Notes: generated from the sequence alone by a model not told the origin. Positions 3,809 through 25,610 are shown, numbered from the stretch's first letter. The stretch is DNA of 32,000 nt from Candidatus Electronema aureum (GCA_004284765.1 NQJD01000005.1:1-32000), one strand, 5' to 3'. A program made the numbers and translations.

Positions 3809-4516
3809 ATGCTTGAACTGCGTAACATTAACACCTTTTACGGCAAGATTCACATTCTGCACGATCTCAGCTTGCGGGTTGAGCAAGGCGAGATCATCAG
3901 TTTAATCGGGGCCAATGGCGCGGGTAAATCGACAACCCTGATGTCCATCTGCGGCATCGTGCCGCCCCGCAGCGGCCAAATTTTCTTCAAAGGACAGCCG
4001 ATTGAGCAGCTGGCTCCGAACAAAATTGTCGCTCTCGGCATCAGTCAGGTGCCAGAAGGACGACATATTTTTCCTGCCCTCAGTGTGGCAGAAAATTTAG
4101 AGCTGGGTGCCTTTCTTCGCCACGACAAGGGGCAAATTCAGCAAGATTTGGAGCATTGCTACACGCTCTTTCCTATTCTTGCGGAACGTCGCCGTCAGCC
4201 CGGCGGCAATTTGTCTGGCGGCGAGCAGCAAATGCTGGCCATCTCCCGCGCCTTGATGGCCCGCCCCCAGCTTTTGCTTTTAGATGAACCGTCAATGGGT
4301 CTGGCTCCGCTGATCACCAAGCAGATTTTTGAGATCATCCGCAAAATCAATCAAGAAGAAAACACTACCATCTTTTTGGTGGAACAGAACGCCAACGTAG
4401 CCCTGAAAATTGCAACCCGGGGTTATGTTTTGGAAAACGGCAGAATTATTCTCCATGACAAAGCGGAGAATCTGCTCAACAACAAAGATATCCAAAAAGC
4501 CTATCTCGGCATTTGA
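3809..4516 (+). CDS. livF: Branched-chain amino-acid type ABC transporter ATP-binding protein (LivF-like), orphan
   Basis: MLELRNINTFYGKIHILHDLSLRVEQGEIISLIGANGAGKST (Walker A), LSGGEQQMLAISRAL (signature), LLLLDEPSMGLAP (Walker B). The C-terminal LVEQNANVALKIATRGYVLENGRI...AYLG is typical of LivF. The ATG at 3809 is preferred over the TTG at 3797. Confidence 0.8.
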   Translation: MLELRNINTFYGKIHILHDLSLRVEQGEIISLIGANGAGKSTTLMSICGIVPPRSGQIFFKGQPIEQLAPNKIVALGISQVPEGRHIFPALSVAENLELGAFLRHDKGQIQQDLEHCYTLFPILAERRRQPGGNLSGGEQQMLAISRALMARPQLLLLDEPSMGLAPLITKQIFEIIRKINQEENTTIFLVEQNANVALKIATRGYVLENGRIILHDKAENLLNNKDIQKAYLGI

Positions 4517-6726: not shown

Positions 6727-8133
6727 TTAACCTCTTGGTGCTTCAGGTATATGCCCAGCCAAATATGGTGCAATGTCCTCCGGCTTCAGGCGGCATTCCT
6801 CCAAGGCTAATGATTTGATTCCTTCCAGCGGACCAGGCAGCAGGCAGGATTCCGGCTCTTGAAGGATAATTCTACCGCCTTTGCGCACCACTGCTTCCAT
6901 GCCGATTTTCAAATCAACATCCACACCACTGAGCAGCACCACCGAAAGTTTGGCCCCAAAAACTTCTGCTGCCGAATGGAGTAAGTTATCAGCATCCAAG
7001 GACATCTTGTTAAATTCATCTTCCCTGCCAGAGATGAGAGGCATTCCTTGGCGAAGAACGACCTGCCGTTTGCCGTGACAATTACCCATCCGACATTGGC
7101 CACCGAGTAGGTCTTCGCCGATGTCAAGACAGCTCACGGCATAGGGCGTAAAGGCATTAAAATACGAAGCAAGATGTTGAGCAATACCAGGATACATATT
7201 TTGCAGCACCATCACGGCGGTCGTTTCGTCGTATTCAAGCGCAGGAATAATTTTCTGAAGTTCCAGTAAACCGCCTAATCCACCGAGGATTAACAACAAG
7301 CGGTCTGCTGGTTTTGCCGCCAGAGTGATTTTCTTCTCCGCAGGTTTAGGTGACTTAGCCCGGCTGACGTTATCCACGCAAAATTCGTGTACATTCATCA
7401 GGATATACTGAAGCCGCTCACTGATCAACTTCCACGATTCCGGGTTGACCGGTTTGGCCACGACATCGACCGCGCCATAGCGCATGAAGTCCATCATCTT
7501 GAAAGCCAGCTGCTCATTGAAATTGCTGACTAAAACTACCGGTGCTGGCGAGCGAATCATGATGTGTTTGAGAGCCACGTCACCACTCATCACCGGCATA
7601 GTCATATCCAAGGTGACGAGGTCAGGCACCTGCATTTCCAAGAATTTCAGAGCTTCTTTGCCGTTGGTGGCTGTACCAACCACCTTAGCCTTGATCTGAT
7701 CTTCAAAGAGCTTAACAAAGGCCTTGGTGAAGAAGCGCGAATCATCAACCACCAGCACCTTGGGCAATCCGTCACCTTCTTCTGCCGTAGTCGAAGCAGC
7801 TGGTCGATTTTGCTCATCAATGCGGCGGGCTGCTTCTAAGAGGAGAAAATTCCACGAGGCATCAATACTGCGCTGATTAGTCTTGGCGAAAAGCATACTG
7901 AAGGTGCCGGACGGCCACGTCATGATCCGGTAGAAGGCTTCCTCTCCGGTCAGCTCGCCGAATTCGGCATGAATGATCTCATTGTCGGAAAAATACAGCA
8001 CGCCGAGATTATCCTCGCTGAGGACGCTCAGTTTACGGTCATCACCAGACAAGCAAGCAAACTGGACGATATCGACCAAACCAAGACCTTCAATTTCGCC
8101 GACAAAGCCGTTTCCGATAGAATTTTTTTTCAT
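6727..8133 (-). CDS. PATAN(DUF4388) - receiver - CheB-like (catalytically degenerate) protein
   Basis: N-terminus GLGLVDIVQFACLSGDDRKLSVLSEDNLGVLYFSDNEIIHAEFGELTGEEAFYRIMTWPSGTFSM (DUF4388/PATAN pattern). REC: KVLVVDDSRFF...PDLVTLDMTMPVMSG...AKP. The C-terminal CheB_methylest-like region has ILGGLGGL in place of IGASTGG and LQNMYPG in place of TQHMPPG. Confidence 0.8.
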   Translation of the reverse strand: MKKNSIGNGFVGEIEGLGLVDIVQFACLSGDDRKLSVLSEDNLGVLYFSDNEIIHAEFGELTGEEAFYRIMTWPSGTFSMLFAKTNQRSIDASWNFLLLEAARRIDEQNRPAASTTAEEGDGLPKVLVVDDSRFFTKAFVKLFEDQIKAKVVGTATNGKEALKFLEMQVPDLVTLDMTMPVMSGDVALKHIMIRSPAPVVLVSNFNEQLAFKMMDFMRYGAVDVVAKPVNPESWKLISERLQYILMNVHEFCVDNVSRAKSPKPAEKKITLAAKPADRLLLILGGLGGLLELQKIIPALEYDETTAVMVLQNMYPGIAQHLASYFNAFTPYAVSCLDIGEDLLGGQCRMGNCHGKRQVVLRQGMPLISGREDEFNKMSLDADNLLHSAAEVFGAKLSVVLLSGVDVDLKIGMEAVVRKGGRIILQEPESCLLPGPLEGIKSLALEECRLKPEDIAPYLAGHIPEAPRG

Positions 8134-8151
8134 GGCTGGGCTATGTTGCGC

Positions 8152-8904
8152 CTACAGGGCGTTGAAGGTAACATGGGTGGCAACAAAGACCAGCATGAGG
8201 ACAAACAGCTCTTTGAAAGAAGTTTCCGGCACTCGCTGAAGGAGTCGTGAACCCAGCTGCGCACCGAGCAAAACGCCGATGATAGCTGGCAAGGCCACCT
8301 GCCACTGCACAGCCCGTCCGAGCAGTAGCTGTGCTGTCACCGCCGTCACGGAAAGAAGCAGCATCAGGGCAATGCAGGTGGCGACCGAGCGAGTCATAGC
8401 TAACCCGCAGCGCATGTTGAAGAAAGGCACTAACCAATCTCCCACGCCAACACCGAGAAAACCGGTGAGCAAGCTAGCAGTGGCGGCAATAGGACGACCC
8501 CGGCGGCGGGCAATCTGCATATCCGGTTGATCTGAACCTTGAACAAAAAAATCATCGCCGCGCATAAAAGCATAGGCGATAAAAAAAATCACCAAGCCGA
8601 GAAAAAGCTTAATATAAATTGGATTGAGCAAAAAGGATATGAACACTCCAATCAACACCCCAGGCAGACTGACTGCGGCCATCATTATGACCAAAGACCA
8701 ATGAATTAGCCCGGCGCGACTGTTGCTGACTGTGGCACTGAATTGGCCAAAAGTTTGGATGACAATCGTGCAAAGCAGGGCCTCATCAGGACGAAGATTA
8801 GTGACAGAGAGCAGCACTGGCATCCACAACACCCCGCCACCCAGCCCGAAAAACAAAGCCACGGTGGCGATTATCATACCCAAGGGCAGCATCAGCCAGT
8901 CCAT
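8152..8904 (-). CDS. TauE/SafE (DUF81) family anion permease
   Basis: About 8 TM helices. The N-terminal FFGLGGGVLWMPVL and internal GFLGVGVGDWLVP glycine-rich motifs are typical of DUF81. The start ATG overlaps the upstream stop (TGATG). Confidence 0.75.
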   Translation of the reverse strand: MDWLMLPLGMIIATVALFFGLGGGVLWMPVLLSVTNLRPDEALLCTIVIQTFGQFSATVSNSRAGLIHWSLVIMMAAVSLPGVLIGVFISFLLNPIYIKLFLGLVIFFIAYAFMRGDDFFVQGSDQPDMQIARRRGRPIAATASLLTGFLGVGVGDWLVPFFNMRCGLAMTRSVATCIALMLLLSVTAVTAQLLLGRAVQWQVALPAIIGVLLGAQLGSRLLQRVPETSFKELFVLMLVFVATHVTFNAL

Positions 8905-22700: not shown

Positions 22701-22905
22701 AGTAGCGCACGATCTCTTTCTTTTTCAGCTCGCGGACAGACTCAAGCTGCTGCTGGGCACGGGCTGTCAGAGCTTTGGATGTTGACCAGTAGTCCAGCAC
22801 CGCGTTGATCAGGTAGGGCACCGTTCCTACCATGAGCAGCAGGGCCATCAGCTTCCACCGGAGGCCCCAGCCCTGTTTGTAGGTTTTTACCTCTTGTCGT
22901 TTCAT
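19705..22905 (-). CDS. Methyl-accepting chemotaxis protein with a very large periplasmic tandem Cache-like sensor, HAMP and a long signalling domain
   Basis: TM1 about aa 18-38, TM2 about aa 576-598, HAMP about aa 600-650. Signalling hairpin [38 protein letters not shown]. Strong RBS AGGAGGGAG upstream of ATG 22905. Confidence 0.9.
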
Positions 22906-22976
22906 TCCCTCACTCCCTCCTGTCTCTGTTCCGGTTTCGGCACTACGGGCCTGCGGTTCCGCCCGCCTGCCGCCTC

Positions 22977-23009
22977 CTGACTACGGTTTCCTAAGGAAAC
23001 CGTAGTCAG
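22977..23009. promoter_or_regulatory. 33-nt near-perfect palindrome (15-bp arms, 3-nt centre) in the leader of the MCP operon
   Basis: CTGACTACGGTTTCC TAA GGAAACCGTAGTCAG. A related half-site-like string, CACTACGG-GCCTGC-GGTTCC, lies at about 22941-22960. No flanking U-run. Confidence 0.5.
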
Positions 23010-23081
23010 CCGCGCTCCAAGGATGATACCCATGTCTTTTCCATGTCCTCCTGTTAAAAAAATTGGTGCCACGCTCTTTTG

Positions 23082-23110
23082 TTTATATTGATATATTGCA
23101 AATTTCGCAA
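23082..23110 (-). promoter_or_regulatory. Candidate sigma70-type promoter for the MCP/che operon
   Basis: Minus strand: TTGCGA (rc of 23105-23110), 17-nt spacer, TATAAA (rc of 23082-23087). It would give a leader of about 170 nt containing the palindrome. Based on motif match only. Confidence 0.3.
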
Positions 23111-23162
23111 GCCTATCCTGCTGTGGTGGGTGTTTTTTTGTGTTTCGGTACCCAACATTCCC

Positions 23163-23188
23163 GTAGGGGCAGGCCCCCGTGCCTGCCC
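23163..23188 (+). repeat. REP-like hairpin copy a (intergenic)
   Basis: GTAGGGGCAGGCCCCCGTGCCTGCCC. Stem GGGCAGGC/GCCTGCCC. Confidence 0.7.
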
Positions 23189-23232
23189 AAAAATGCCACG
23201 CCGTGCAATCATTGCCGCGCCCGTGCAATCAA

Positions 23233-23258
23233 GGGCGGACACAGGGGTCCGCCCCTAC
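23233..23258 (-). repeat. REP-like hairpin copy b (inverted relative to a; overlaps the RAYT stop codon)
   Basis: The rc reads GTAGGGGCGGACCCCTGTGTCCGCCC. Stem GGGCGGAC/GTCCGCCC, with compensatory changes relative to copy a. The TAG stop of the transposase lies in the GTAGGGG head. Confidence 0.7.
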
Positions 23259-23480
23259 ATGAACGGCGTTGGGGCATTTAATTGATCTTCCGTCCACCGG
23301 GCCGGGTTGTTTTCAATGTATTCACGAATTCCGTTCAATTCGTGTTCGTCACGAATGACGCGCTCCCAATAATTGCGCTGCCATAATTTGCCGGGAAAGG
23401 GCCGCCATCCGCAACCCTTCACCCCGTCCGCATATCGTTTTGTGGTCAGGGTTTTGTAGCGGCGCATTACATCCGGCAAG

Positions 23481-23506
23481 GTAGGGGCAGGCCCTTGTGC
23501 CTGCCC
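23481..23506 (+). repeat. REP-like hairpin copy c (inside the RAYT coding sequence)
   Basis: GTAGGGGCAGGCCCTTGTGCCTGCCC. It is read on the minus strand in frame as GQAQGPAPT. Confidence 0.7.
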
Positions 23507-23672
23507 TATCATTCCTTGTATCTGCCCAGAAAGAACCACAATGCCATGCAGATGATTCGGCATAACGGTAAATGCGTCAAGCGCAACACCGGAATAATAT
23601 TCTGGCATTTCATGCCATATTTCCCGAATCATCTGCCCCGCTGTATTCAGCCGCATTTCAGAAGGAACATCA

Positions 23673-23698
23673 GGGTAGGCACAGGGGCCTACCCCTAC
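23673..23698 (-). repeat. REP-like hairpin copy d (inside the RAYT coding sequence, opposite orientation to c)
   Basis: The rc reads GTAGGGGTAGGCCCCTGTGCCTACCC. Stem GGGTAGGC/GCCTACCC (compensatory). It is read in frame as VGVGPCAYP. Confidence 0.7.
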
Positions 23699-23840
23699 AA
23701 CAATCTCGCCGAATAAACATTCCCGATCTTGGGTGCAGATGGTCACAAAATATGCCCCGCCCTGCGAATAATCATAACCTGTTAGACGAATGGAACGGCG
23801 ATGATGAATTGCCGGTTCGTAACGCATCGCATAAACGCCC

Positions 23841-25610
23841 TCACGCCGACAAAATACCGTGAATCGTCTCCGGGATAGCCGCATCTACCAGCACAGCTGC
23901 CTCACGGCAATGCGCGGACACTGACCAAGGCATATCCCTATACAGGCAACCCGCCGGGTCTTGCACGATACCTGCGCCGCCCACTCGGAGGATTTCTGCC
24001 ATACCTTCAGTGCCATCCTCACCCACGCCGGAGAGAATCACCGCCACCGCGTCGTCTTTCATGATTTCCGCCACCGAAAAAAATAGCATGTTGATCGAGC
24101 CGCGCTGGGTGGCAAAAGGCGCGGAGGAAAGGTGCAGTACCAAGCCGTCTTCGCGTTCATGCACAGTCATATATTTTTCGCCCGAAGCGAAATAACAGAC
24201 ACCCGGTTCCAATGGAGCGTTGTTCTCGGCCCGCCTAATTCGCAGCGGTGAAAAACGATCCATGTATTCAACAAAGGCATCAAGATGTTTGGCCGGGGCG
24301 TAAAACATGACCAAATAAGCAGCGGGATACGCGGCGGAAAGATGAGGCAGGAGTTTGAGTAACGCACCGTAGCCGCCTTCTGCTGCGCCAATAGCCACGA
24401 CTTTTTCGCAGCGGCTACCTGGCGGAAAACCCGCCTGTTTGTCCTTGTTCACCGCCCGAACATAACGCACCGCCTCCAACTCCACTTCAGCAGCAAGATG
24501 CACCTTACGGGCAATGTCCCTCGTCTGCTCTTCAAGATCGGTTTCAGCGTTTCGAGAGGGCTTGGCAACAAAATCCACAGCTCCGTACTTGAGTGCATCA
24601 AAAGTAACGATTGCGCCGTCTTGAGTCATGGAACTGAGCATTACCGTGGGCGTGGGTGCTTGAATCATCAAATGTTTGATGGTCTTCAAGCCGTCCATGA
24701 TTGGCATTTCTACGTCCAACGTAATGACATCCGGCTTGAGCTGAGGAATAAGCTGAAGAGCCTCTTCGCCGTTCTCAGCCTCACCTACCACCTGAACAAA
24801 GGGATCGTCCTTAAAGATGCCCGCGATCACCTTGCGCATCATCTTGGAGTCATCCACGATGAACAGGCCGATCTTCTGCTGCGCCATGCGGTTTGTCTCC
24901 TGTGCTAATCCGCTATTTTTAGCGGTTTCCCGTTTCAGCCTTGAGGTCACGCGAATGGTTTCCAGCTCCTGCGTGCTGATGGTGCGCTCTGGCGTGTACT
25001 CCTCTGATTCAATCAGAAAGCCTAAAGGCTGCCAGTCGAAAATTTCCAAGGCCGCTTCAGCCGCCTTTTTTTTTTCGCAGGCCGCGTTGATCAGGATTCC
25101 TTTGTCAAAATCGAGCAAGCCGTGTTTTTTACTGCCGAAACGGACGGAAATTCTTGCTGTCTTCTGGACTGCCTCAAAAAAAGCCACAATTTTGGCTACA
25201 GAAATACCAGGCTGATAATCGTTTTCATCTAAGCGTTGGAGACTTTCCAAAACTGCGCAGCCGATGGTCTCTAAGTTGGAAGGTTTGGCGAGGAAAAGAA
25301 AAATGGAATCTTTACAAGAGCAGTTTGCCACGGCCTTGATCGCGGGATGCTCGCCGTTGGTCATCACAATGCACTGGATGTGCCGGTACGACGTGGAGAC
25401 CAAAGAAAGTACCTCTAAGCCGTTCAACCCGCCGCCATGTAAATTGACCACCAGCACCGCGATCTTTTCCTGCCTGAGGATAAACAACTCCTCACCCCGG
25501 CTGGTGGCGGTCAACACCTCATACTGGCGGAAAGATTCCAGCAATTCAGAAAGATCATTGACAAAGAGCAGATCATCGTCAACGATAAGAATTTTGGATT
25601 TATCAGACAT
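23841..25610 (-). CDS. pseudo-receiver - PATAN(DUF4388)-like - receiver - CheB-like (catalytically degenerate) protein
   Basis: REC1: KILIVDDD...IAVLVVNLHGGGLNG (Asn at the phospho-acceptor position). Middle: ISVAKIVAFFEAVQKTARISVRFGSKKHGLLDFDKGILINA...AEAALEIFDWQPLGF (PATAN-like). REC2: LFIVDDSKMMRKV...PDVITLDVEMPIMDG...AKP. CheB-like region: IGAAEGG in place of IGASTGG, VMFYAPAKH in place of TQHMPPGF, LSGVGEDG. Confidence 0.8.
   Translation of the reverse strand: MSDKSKILIVDDDLLFVNDLSELLESFRQYEVLTATSRGEELFILRQEKIAVLVVNLHGGGLNGLEVLSLVSTSYRHIQCIVMTNGEHPAIKAVANCSCKDSIFLFLAKPSNLETIGCAVLESLQRLDENDYQPGISVAKIVAFFEAVQKTARISVRFGSKKHGLLDFDKGILINAACEKKKAAEAALEIFDWQPLGFLIESEEYTPERTISTQELETIRVTSRLKRETAKNSGLAQETNRMAQQKIGLFIVDDSKMMRKVIAGIFKDDPFVQVVGEAENGEEALQLIPQLKPDVITLDVEMPIMDGLKTIKHLMIQAPTPTVMLSSMTQDGAIVTFDALKYGAVDFVAKPSRNAETDLEEQTRDIARKVHLAAEVELEAVRYVRAVNKDKQAGFPPGSRCEKVVAIGAAEGGYGALLKLLPHLSAAYPAAYLVMFYAPAKHLDAFVEYMDRFSPLRIRRAENNAPLEPGVCYFASGEKYMTVHEREDGLVLHLSSAPFATQRGSINMLFFSVAEIMKDDAVAVILSGVGEDGTEGMAEILRVGGAGIVQDPAGCLYRDMPWSVSAHCREAAVLVDAAIPETIHGILSA

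Follow-up and report, generated by a model that had tools for sequence, protein, structure and literature searches.

The stretch of DNA considered here is a 32,000-nt segment of the genome of Candidatus Electronema aureum (NQJD01000005.1:1-32000; hereafter the window, with positions counted from its first nucleotide). It contains a gene for a REP-associated tyrosine transposase (RAYT, or TnpA-REP) and four copies of a 26-nt repetitive extragenic palindrome (REP) tagged with GTAG. Two copies lie next to the gene, whereas the other two are located inside its open reading frame (ORF), where they are translated. A preliminary description, made from the sequence alone, had recognized these four elements, and their coordinates and orientations proved correct. 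The features of the locus are the following:

23126-23839, minus strand: REPtron-like insert of ~0.7 kb, its extent defined against related che clusters without the insert
23255-23827, minus strand: RAYT / TnpA-REP gene, an ORF of 190 amino acids (aa) coding for an HUH/Y1 transposase that fits subclass 2.4 / RAYT group 4
23546-23554, minus strand: HUH motif H92-L93-H94 in MPNHLHGI, aligning with PEHMHCI of 4ER8
23366-23383, minus strand: WQRNYW segment with the conserved WQ strand, aligning with WQPRFWEH of 4ER8
23303-23320, minus strand: putative catalytic tyrosine motif YIENNP (in REYIENNP), whose Y170 and N174 correspond in the alignment to E. coli TnpA-REP residues Y115 and N119
23163-23188, plus strand: REP copy a, GTAGGGGCAGGCCCCCGTGCCTGCCC, intergenic
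23233-23258, minus strand: REP copy b, GTAGGGGCGGACCCCTGTGTCCGCCC, whose GTAG gives the TAG stop codon of the gene (23255-23257)
23481-23506, plus strand: in-ORF REP copy c, GTAGGGGCAGGCCCTTGTGCCTGCCC, inverted with respect to the gene and read as GQAQGPAPT (residues 108-116); site 2
23673-23698, minus strand: in-ORF REP copy d, GTAGGGGTAGGCCCCTGTGCCTACCC, in the orientation of the gene and read as VGVGPCAYP (residues 44-52); site 1

The pattern GTAGGGGNNNNNCCNNGTGNNNNCCC has exactly four matches in the window, against 0.01 expected from shuffled sequences, and a generic search for hairpins with a GT[AG]G foot retrieved no copy in the window beyond these four. All share the same 26-nt architecture, namely GTAG followed by an 8-bp stem, a 6-nt loop and the returning arm of the 8-bp stem. 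When folded as single-stranded DNA (ssDNA), each forms the designed hairpin (-8.3 to -10 kcal/mol, z -2.8 to -4.2). The stems are those given in the preliminary description, every position being paired: GGGCAGGC/GCCTGCCC in copies a and c (CAGGC/GCCTG), GGGCGGAC/GTCCGCCC in copy b (CGGAC/GTCCG) and GGGTAGGC/GCCTACCC in copy d (TAGGC/GCCTA). Copies a and b, in both of which GTAG is followed by GGG...CCC, lie within ~95 nt of the RAYT stop codon. They form an inverted doublet 3' of the gene (23163-23258), with a 44-nt spacer and the GTAG ends pointing outward, and this doublet can fold as a single long imperfect hairpin (z -3.1 on one strand and -4.0 on the other). In its arrangement the doublet matches a REPIN in the sense of Bertels and Rainey (two inverted REPs with a short spacer, able to form one long hairpin), in agreement with its first description as REPIN-like; a REPIN would in addition belong to a replicating population dispersed in the genome.

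Because the copies have unique flanks, mixed orientations and irregular spacing, we rejected a CRISPR array, tandem repetition and an RNA gene as readings of these repeats. Scanning positions 22800-24000 against Rfam produced only chance matches to miRNA precursors, far under the gathering scores, and a promoter and terminator scan gave no signal bearing on the RAYT/REP unit. Two additional similarities were observed around the in-ORF copies. That between c and d runs 11 nt beyond the 26-mer, resulting in 37-nt arms that are 81% complementary, and the segment at 23507-23530 (minus strand; residues 100-107, SGQIQGMI), immediately before the site-2 REP, reads GGGCAGATACAAGGAATGATA on the coding strand and resembles the first half of the REP, GGGCAGGCACAAGGGCC. 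This segment may be a decayed tandem half-copy.

The transposase and its translated hairpins

The RAYT gene starts 13 nt downstream of the stop codon of a cheB-like gene. Its start is placed at 23827, and not at the ATG at 23884, which overlaps the upstream gene, because homologs begin with M-[RK]-Y-[DEN]-P. In agreement with the initial assignment to RAYT-type transposases, the protein passes the gathering cutoff of the Pfam domain Y1_Tnp (PF01797; 25.3 bits, cutoff 23), and a profile of 40 homologs searched against solved structures had E. coli TnpA-REP (PDB 4ER8) as its sole match, aligning PNHxHGI with PEHMHCI, WQRNYxEH with WQPRFWEH, and EYIxNNP with DYIYINP. The AlphaFold model of the protein has a mean predicted local distance difference test score (pLDDT) of 79.6, and its top PDB matches with Foldseek are ISDra2 TnpA, TnpA-REP (4ER8) and the IS608 transposases. 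The HUH motif described at the outset (HLH) is indeed present at residues 92-94; its hydrophobic position is L in the window protein and I, V, L or M among close homologs. By contrast, the RNYWE sequence initially taken for the tyrosine motif belongs to the WQ strand, with its Y opposite F98 in the alignment to E. coli TnpA-REP; the catalytic tyrosine is Y170. N91, H92, H94, W149, Q150, Y170 and N174 are invariant in the alignment of 40 homologs, H94 and Y170 are 76 aa apart, and the protein ends 15 residues past NNP. By homology, Y170 would act as the nucleophile and N174 as a metal ligand, and W149, Q150, W154 and E155 would bind the GTAG guide; Quentin et al. 2018 (PMC6006769, supplement) give W94, Q95, W99, E100, H101 and R104 as the GTAG contacts.

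Copies c and d are both read in frame, one in each orientation as had been claimed, and leave the reading frame unbroken. In the structural model, copy d occupies a beta-hairpin turn ahead of helix A (loop 44-56; mean pLDDT of 63 over residues 41-50 and of 75 over residues 51-60), where homologs lacking the site-1 insert have a 2-residue turn, e.g., D-G. Copy c corresponds to a linker (loop 100-116) between the HUH strand (92-99) and the helix 117-139, with a pLDDT of ~59 for residues 101-110, below that of the surrounding core. In the predicted structure, both inserts are thus accommodated in low-confidence surface loops, a point that the preliminary description had suggested modelling. The third coding contribution of the REPs, the TAG stop codon supplied by copy b, was also borne out.

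In-frame REPs inside tnpAREP were reported by Quentin, Siguier, Chandler and Fichant in 2018 (BMC Genomics 19:475, PMC6006769) as a unique feature of their subclass 2.4 (Figure S10), which is the RAYT group 4 of Bertels et al. 2017 (PMC5581495). The signature of this subclass comprises NH[IFV]H, WQ and YIxNNP, a median length of 194 aa, a variable beta3-alphaC insertion and REPs "inserted in tnpAREP" (Table 1, PMC6006769); its HuH-to-Y spacing is larger than the 58-67 aa of most subclasses (PMC6006769). The window protein has NHLH, slightly wider than the consensus, together with WQ, YIENNP, the 76-aa spacing from H94 to Y170, a length of 190 aa and no conserved C-terminal domain, and the gene has both canonical REPs at less than 1 kb and in-frame REPs. 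By these motif and architecture criteria, the window RAYT fits subclass 2.4 / RAYT group 4, with which it also shares the beta3-alphaC insertion, GTAG REPs with three G-C pairs at the foot and a distribution across many phyla. It differs from the published picture in the L of its HUH motif (I/F/V in the consensus), in having a REP at site 1, which precedes the HUH motif whereas the published insertions are "generally" found between HuH and Y, and in its host, a cable bacterium (Desulfobulbaceae), the paper naming mainly Cyanobacteria and Bacteroidetes. We found no paper later than Quentin et al. 2018 that changes the picture of subclass 2.4.

Comparison with better-known systems places the locus further. 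E. coli TnpA-REP, of RAYT group 2 (4ER8; Messing et al. 2012, PMC3479197; Corneloup et al. 2021, PMC8266576), has the same fold and HUH motif, Y115 and N119 equivalent to Y170 and N174, the WQ..WE..R residues that contact GTAG and a GTAG-tagged REP hairpin as substrate. However, identity is only ~20%, the E. coli REPs are longer and bulged, the E. coli ORF is devoid of REPs and its product bears a C-terminal extension. The REPIN-RAYT systems of Pseudomonas and enterobacteria (groups 2 and 3; Bertels and Rainey 2011, PMC3116915) likewise have an inverted doublet beside the RAYT gene that folds into a long hairpin, vertical inheritance at a fixed locus and purifying selection, but they count hundreds of REPINs per genome and have no in-ORF copies. 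Short palindromes that are inserted in frame, translated in either orientation and tolerated in loops or termini are also represented by the Rickettsia palindromic elements (RPEs) and by the GTAG/CGTC REPs that Di Nocera et al. 2013 (PMC3733652) described within genes. RPEs nevertheless have an unrelated sequence and no link to RAYTs, whereas in the window the host gene is that of the presumed mobilizing enzyme itself.

In-frame REPs in homologous genes and in cable bacteria

RAYT protein homologs are very numerous (more than 7,900 detectable). Our family survey covered 81 genes, namely 80 homologous genes with their flanks from metagenomes plus that of the window, in which REPs were detected as hairpins with a GT[AG]G foot. 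The 311 kb around the homologous genes contained 244 REP-like hairpins, compared with 11 in the reversed-sequence controls. In 69 of the 81 genes one or more REPs lie within the ORF, and none was detectable in the other 12. Site 2 hosted 122 of the 145 in-ORF REPs, site 1 only 4 and the C-terminal tail 17; 6/81 genes use the TAG of a REP foot as their stop codon. Since site-2 REPs split about evenly by orientation, they are often doublets. Length variation in the 40-homolog alignment is concentrated at the same three places (sites 1 and 2 and the C-terminal tail), and the inserted peptides are of two kinds, VGAxPxxxP and GQxxGxAPT. At site 2 the peptide diverges among homologs (GQAQGPAPT, GQPQGIAPT, GAGLKPAPT, RAGASPAPT, RGDRPVAPT), whereas, for most of the 39 protein-anchored genes with an extractable segment, the DNA is a hairpin that terminates in CCCCTAC. 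The peptide being variable and the DNA hairpin kept, the constant feature is a nucleic-acid element and not a peptide. These segments are therefore not ancestral peptides encoded by unrelated DNA, the observation that would have contradicted the initial proposal of inserted REPs.

The in-ORF copies closely resemble the REPs of their own neighborhood. Within a locus, in-ORF REPs (sites 1 and 2) and flanking REPs have a median edit distance of 1 and are identical in 14 of 33 loci, as opposed to a median of 7 between loci (permutation p ~2e-4, 33 loci). Inserts at site 1 are scattered over at least six distinct clades, each of them nested within relatives that have the plain 2-residue turn, and they differ in REP type and reading frame, a pattern that points to repeated gains at a permissive loop. 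The empty site reads GTN-GAY-GGN-GAA, and no convincing target motif was found at the site-1 insertion point.

Several family members show other REP-derived structures. In L208 (~3853-3876), L209 (~746-767), L020, L041, L086, L100 and L116, a complete REP is immediately followed by one or more tandem repeats of its 3' part (loop plus 3' arm, e.g., CCCCCTGTGGCCGCCC), and in the proteins P0020 and P0082 peptides derived from REPs form long tandem arrays (GQAQIGQAQ..., RACPLAQRACPLAQ...). Such repeats suggest that the hairpin undergoes slippage or successive rounds of cleavage and joining. "Double-foot" REPs (GTAG-hairpin-CTAC, e.g., GTAGGGGCGAATAATTATTCGCCCCTAC) lie on both sides of the RAYT gene in L124 (2937-2964 and 3628-3655), and one is found upstream of that of L208 (~2803-2830); they fit the second REP type given by Quentin et al. 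for subclass 2.4.

In the window, the RAYT unit lies between a cheB-like gene (589 aa, 85% identical to Candidatus Electronema proteins) and a gene for a methyl-accepting chemotaxis protein (MCP), that is, between the two halves of a chemosensory cluster, as originally noted. In three relatives without the unit (L204-L206), homology stops at ~23840, the end of the cheB-like gene, and resumes at ~23125, in the MCP leader. The spacer between these two genes contains a small ORF and a PemK-family toxin gene in one of them (L204, Candidatus Electronema sp. PJ, 7786-8372), and measures only 100-260 nt in L205 and L206. The ~0.7-kb RAYT unit is thus a lineage-specific insert in a variable spot. Two further relatives, L208 and L209, have an orthologous RAYT gene at the same position (74-75% identity), and the cheB-like protein of L208 is 82% identical to that of the window. 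Among the three orthologs, the RAYT core has dN/dS values of 0.12-0.16 and dS values of 0.5-0.8, which implies that the gene is maintained under purifying selection.

The window, L208 and L209 have orthologous REPs in three positions (site 1, site 2 and that of copy a), but in different states. Copy a, which is non-coding in the window, shows 0-1 differences over 26 nt despite a dS of ~0.8. The window has a perfect site-1 hairpin, which includes a T-A pair in place of the C...G of L208 and L209; in these two relatives the hairpin has partly decayed, L208 having GCAG for GTAG plus one mismatch and L209 two mismatches. At site 2, the hairpin of L209 has also decayed, with several mismatches. Both ORFs are nevertheless intact and constrained. 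As orthologous REPs have been both kept and lost, renewal followed by decay fits better than strict selection acting on every in-ORF hairpin. L208 and L209 lack copy b and code for longer C-terminal tails; the arrival of this copy shortened the window protein.

The region next to the insert includes two other elements of interest. A small ORF of ~43 aa (22902-23033, minus strand; MGIILGARL...), with its own AGGAGG ribosome-binding site, ends near the MCP start at 22905, where its TGA and the start codon of the 1066-aa MCP gene overlap (ATGA). L206, L208 and L209 have counterparts of this ORF that overlap the MCP gene in the same manner and share a conserved E-Q-R-Q-E stretch at the C-terminus, and a called 32-aa gene overlaps the MCP start at the equivalent place in L205. 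This ORF may code for a translationally coupled chemoreceptor leader peptide. It contains, at 22977-23009, a perfect 33-nt palindrome with 16-bp arms and a 1-nt center, CTGACTACGGTTTCCT A AGGAAACCGTAGTCAG, which is not a REP. Its counterparts are a shorter GGTTTCC-GCA-GGAAACC in L208 and an 84% match in L204, and it may be a regulatory hairpin or operator.

The 26-nt element in other genomes

A scan of representative genomes with a degenerate 26-mer retrieved at least 119 stretches, in metagenome-assembled genomes from many phyla; the results that follow concern the matches listed from that scan. Near-identical 26-nt REPs occur in Chloroflexota, Planctomycetota, Acidobacteriota, Desulfobacterota, Omnitrophota and others, and 136 of 141 matches are neither in nor beside a RAYT-like gene. 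Since their flanks are unrelated, the unit is exactly the 26-mer. Many are followed, a few bases further on, by an inverted partner whose stem differs, GGGCAACC...GGTTGCCCCTAC. The scan pattern let three variable stem positions vary independently, and yet 133/141 copies are fully Watson-Crick paired, against 46.7 expected under independent columns. Exact copies of a, b and d are present in unrelated metagenome-assembled genomes, so that the stem differences within the window correspond to widespread REP subtypes and not necessarily to substitutions in place. The compensatory stem changes originally claimed, with the selection that they would imply, therefore stand only in part: the paired differences are real, but they are not clearly compensation in situ, given the subtypes found elsewhere and the decay of orthologous in-ORF hairpins.

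Roughly one match in four is located far inside a long open frame, and two of these frames exceed 2,000 codons, in agreement with an earlier report of intragenic REPs (PMC3733652). In these two cases, from an Acidobacteriota metagenome-assembled genome, the REP is in frame within ORFs of 2,666 codons (L079, 4710-4735) and 2,211 codons (L081, 2985-3010), with ~1,000 open codons on each side, and they are probably in-frame insertions in giant genes. A different arrangement is seen in L082 (1606-6443), L090, L109 and L115, where the REP is included in a longer repeat with conserved flanks (...ttttcgcagcgc-REP-ttcttcaagacgac...) that recurs every 100-280 nt in mixed orientation. This longer repeat is a composite built around the 26-nt REP. 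For the window locus itself, two independent short-read assemblies (L003 and L004) break 129 nt and 38 nt past the RAYT stop codon, within or just past the doublet, a weak hint that the REPs are repeated in the genome or hinder assembly.

A candidate REPtron and its alternatives

We consider that the region at ~23126-23839 is probably (at roughly 0.78) a REPtron, formed by a subclass 2.4 RAYT gene and its cognate GTAG REPs, in which the in-ORF copies are tolerated members of the local REP population. Direct observations comprise the sequences, the fold and motifs, the position of the inserts in loops, the pattern across the family and the close match between in-ORF and flanking copies. From them, we infer an enzyme activity, an insertion route and the near-neutrality of the inserts. 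By homology, the RAYT protein would be an HUH/Y1 ssDNA endonuclease and strand transferase that binds the REP hairpin and its 5' GTAG on ssDNA, holds a metal ion through H92, H94 and N174, and cleaves beside the hairpin via a covalent bond to Y170. This cleavage activity would spread or rearrange REPs, and the in-ORF copies would be local REPs inserted or copied into the gene of the enzyme itself. Read in stop-free frames as 9-residue peptides rich in Gly, Pro and Ala, they would be tolerated because both loops are permissive, and they would probably be renewed or homogenized occasionally, otherwise decaying.

Some observations weigh against this explanation. The other ~31 kb of the window are devoid of REP copies, and ~41 kb from three relatives hold only four GT[AG]GGGG heptamers on both strands. 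REP abundance in the source genome is thus probably low; this low local density agrees with the ~14 occurrences per replicon of the 16-mers flanking group 4 RAYTs (Bertels 2017, PMC5581495). The NCBIfam model NF047646 (REP_Tyr_transpos) gives 60.7 bits (E 1.4e-16), short of its cutoff of 80, and the window protein is accordingly related to this model without being an equivalog member. The hydrophobic residue of the HUH motif, L, falls outside the published I/F/V consensus. The enzyme activity that we propose is drawn by analogy from the E. coli and group 3 enzymes and not from subclass 2.4 (PMC3479197, PMC8266576). Finally, a REP so nearly universal at site 2 could also serve some function, which would argue against simple tolerance.

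This last point is the core of an alternative in which the in-ORF hairpins are selected cis elements, that is, mRNA or ssDNA structures regulating RAYT by attenuation, transcript stability or autoregulatory binding or cleavage. The presence of at least one in-ORF REP in 69/81 genes, with site 2 occupied in most members, the perfect stems of all four window copies and the excess of Watson-Crick pairing (133/141 listed copies versus 46.7 expected) would fit such selection, as would the fact that orthologous REPs vary far less than synonymous sites (0-1/26 nt in copy a for a dS of ~0.8). However, the partly decayed hairpins of L208 and L209 lie in ORFs that are still intact and constrained, 12/81 genes do without any detectable in-ORF REP, and the type, length and frame of the hairpins track the local REP family, as expected of mobile copies. 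Covariation, moreover, is also expected if only intact hairpins get copied. We consequently regard selected cis elements as unlikely. More speculatively, in-ORF REPs might be kept matched to the genomic REPs by the enzyme activity or by gene conversion, such that the gene is a protected, selectable copy of the substrate. Although we hold this to be doubtful, a gene moving to a new host would, if it were true, bring along the template to seed a new REP population, which could explain both the near-identical REP found across phyla and the recurrent insertions at two loops.

Copying might also have run in the opposite direction, the hairpin-coding segments being old and the gene a master copy that seeds extragenic REPs, which would explain the nearly identical 26-nt REPs of many phyla among the listed matches. 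The conserved position of site 2, with G112, A114 and P115 at least 90% conserved in the closest 40 homologs, is compatible with this possibility, and so is the identity of in-ORF and flanking copies in 14/33 loci, which does not by itself indicate the direction of copying. The site-1 inserts, found in at least six separate clades nested among relatives with the 2-residue turn, are nevertheless gains and not ancestral segments, and the site-2 hairpins range from 24 to ~30 nt with differing stems and loops, in better agreement with turnover than with a fixed template. A master-copy gene thus seems quite improbable. Even less credible is an autonomous IS200/IS605 insertion sequence with the hairpins as its left-end and right-end structures. 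The Y1 transposase fold, the hairpins adjoining the gene and the presence or absence of the unit among related che clusters recall such elements, but the motif is Y---NP (class 2, TnpA-REP-like) and not the Y---Q of IS200 transposases, tnpB is missing, and there is no hairpin upstream, where 13 nt separate the gene from the cheB-like gene. In addition, the fixed position in three lineages with dS values of ~0.5-0.8 implies vertical inheritance, and the identical hairpin is dispersed alone in many genomes among the listed matches. As for chance or low-complexity matches, only the G+C-rich composition of the element speaks for them, and they are refuted by the four matches against 0.01 expected and by the occurrence of the element in hundreds of loci, including the 244 hairpins in 311 kb against 11 in reversed controls.

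The habit of carrying in-frame REPs was published in 2018 for subclass 2.4 (PMC6006769), of which the window gene is a further example and not a discovery, and the locus opens no new question. Our analysis goes modestly beyond that work in quantifying the match between in-ORF and flanking copies, in describing that insertions recur at site 1, ahead of the HUH motif, and that REPs provide stop codons, and in comparing three orthologous loci of cable bacteria. This comparison makes the locus a clean orthologous case in which in-ORF REPs are seen kept, compensated or decaying. A small gene accompanied by four cognate hairpins within 700 nt is, in addition, a convenient substrate set for the biochemistry of subclass 2.4. 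For the annotation of these transposases, the catalytic tyrosine is to be sought in YIxNNP, and Gly/Pro/Ala-rich peptides such as GQAQGPAPT, VGAGPCACP and similar ones, as well as some stop codons, come from translated REP hairpins rather than from protein motifs.

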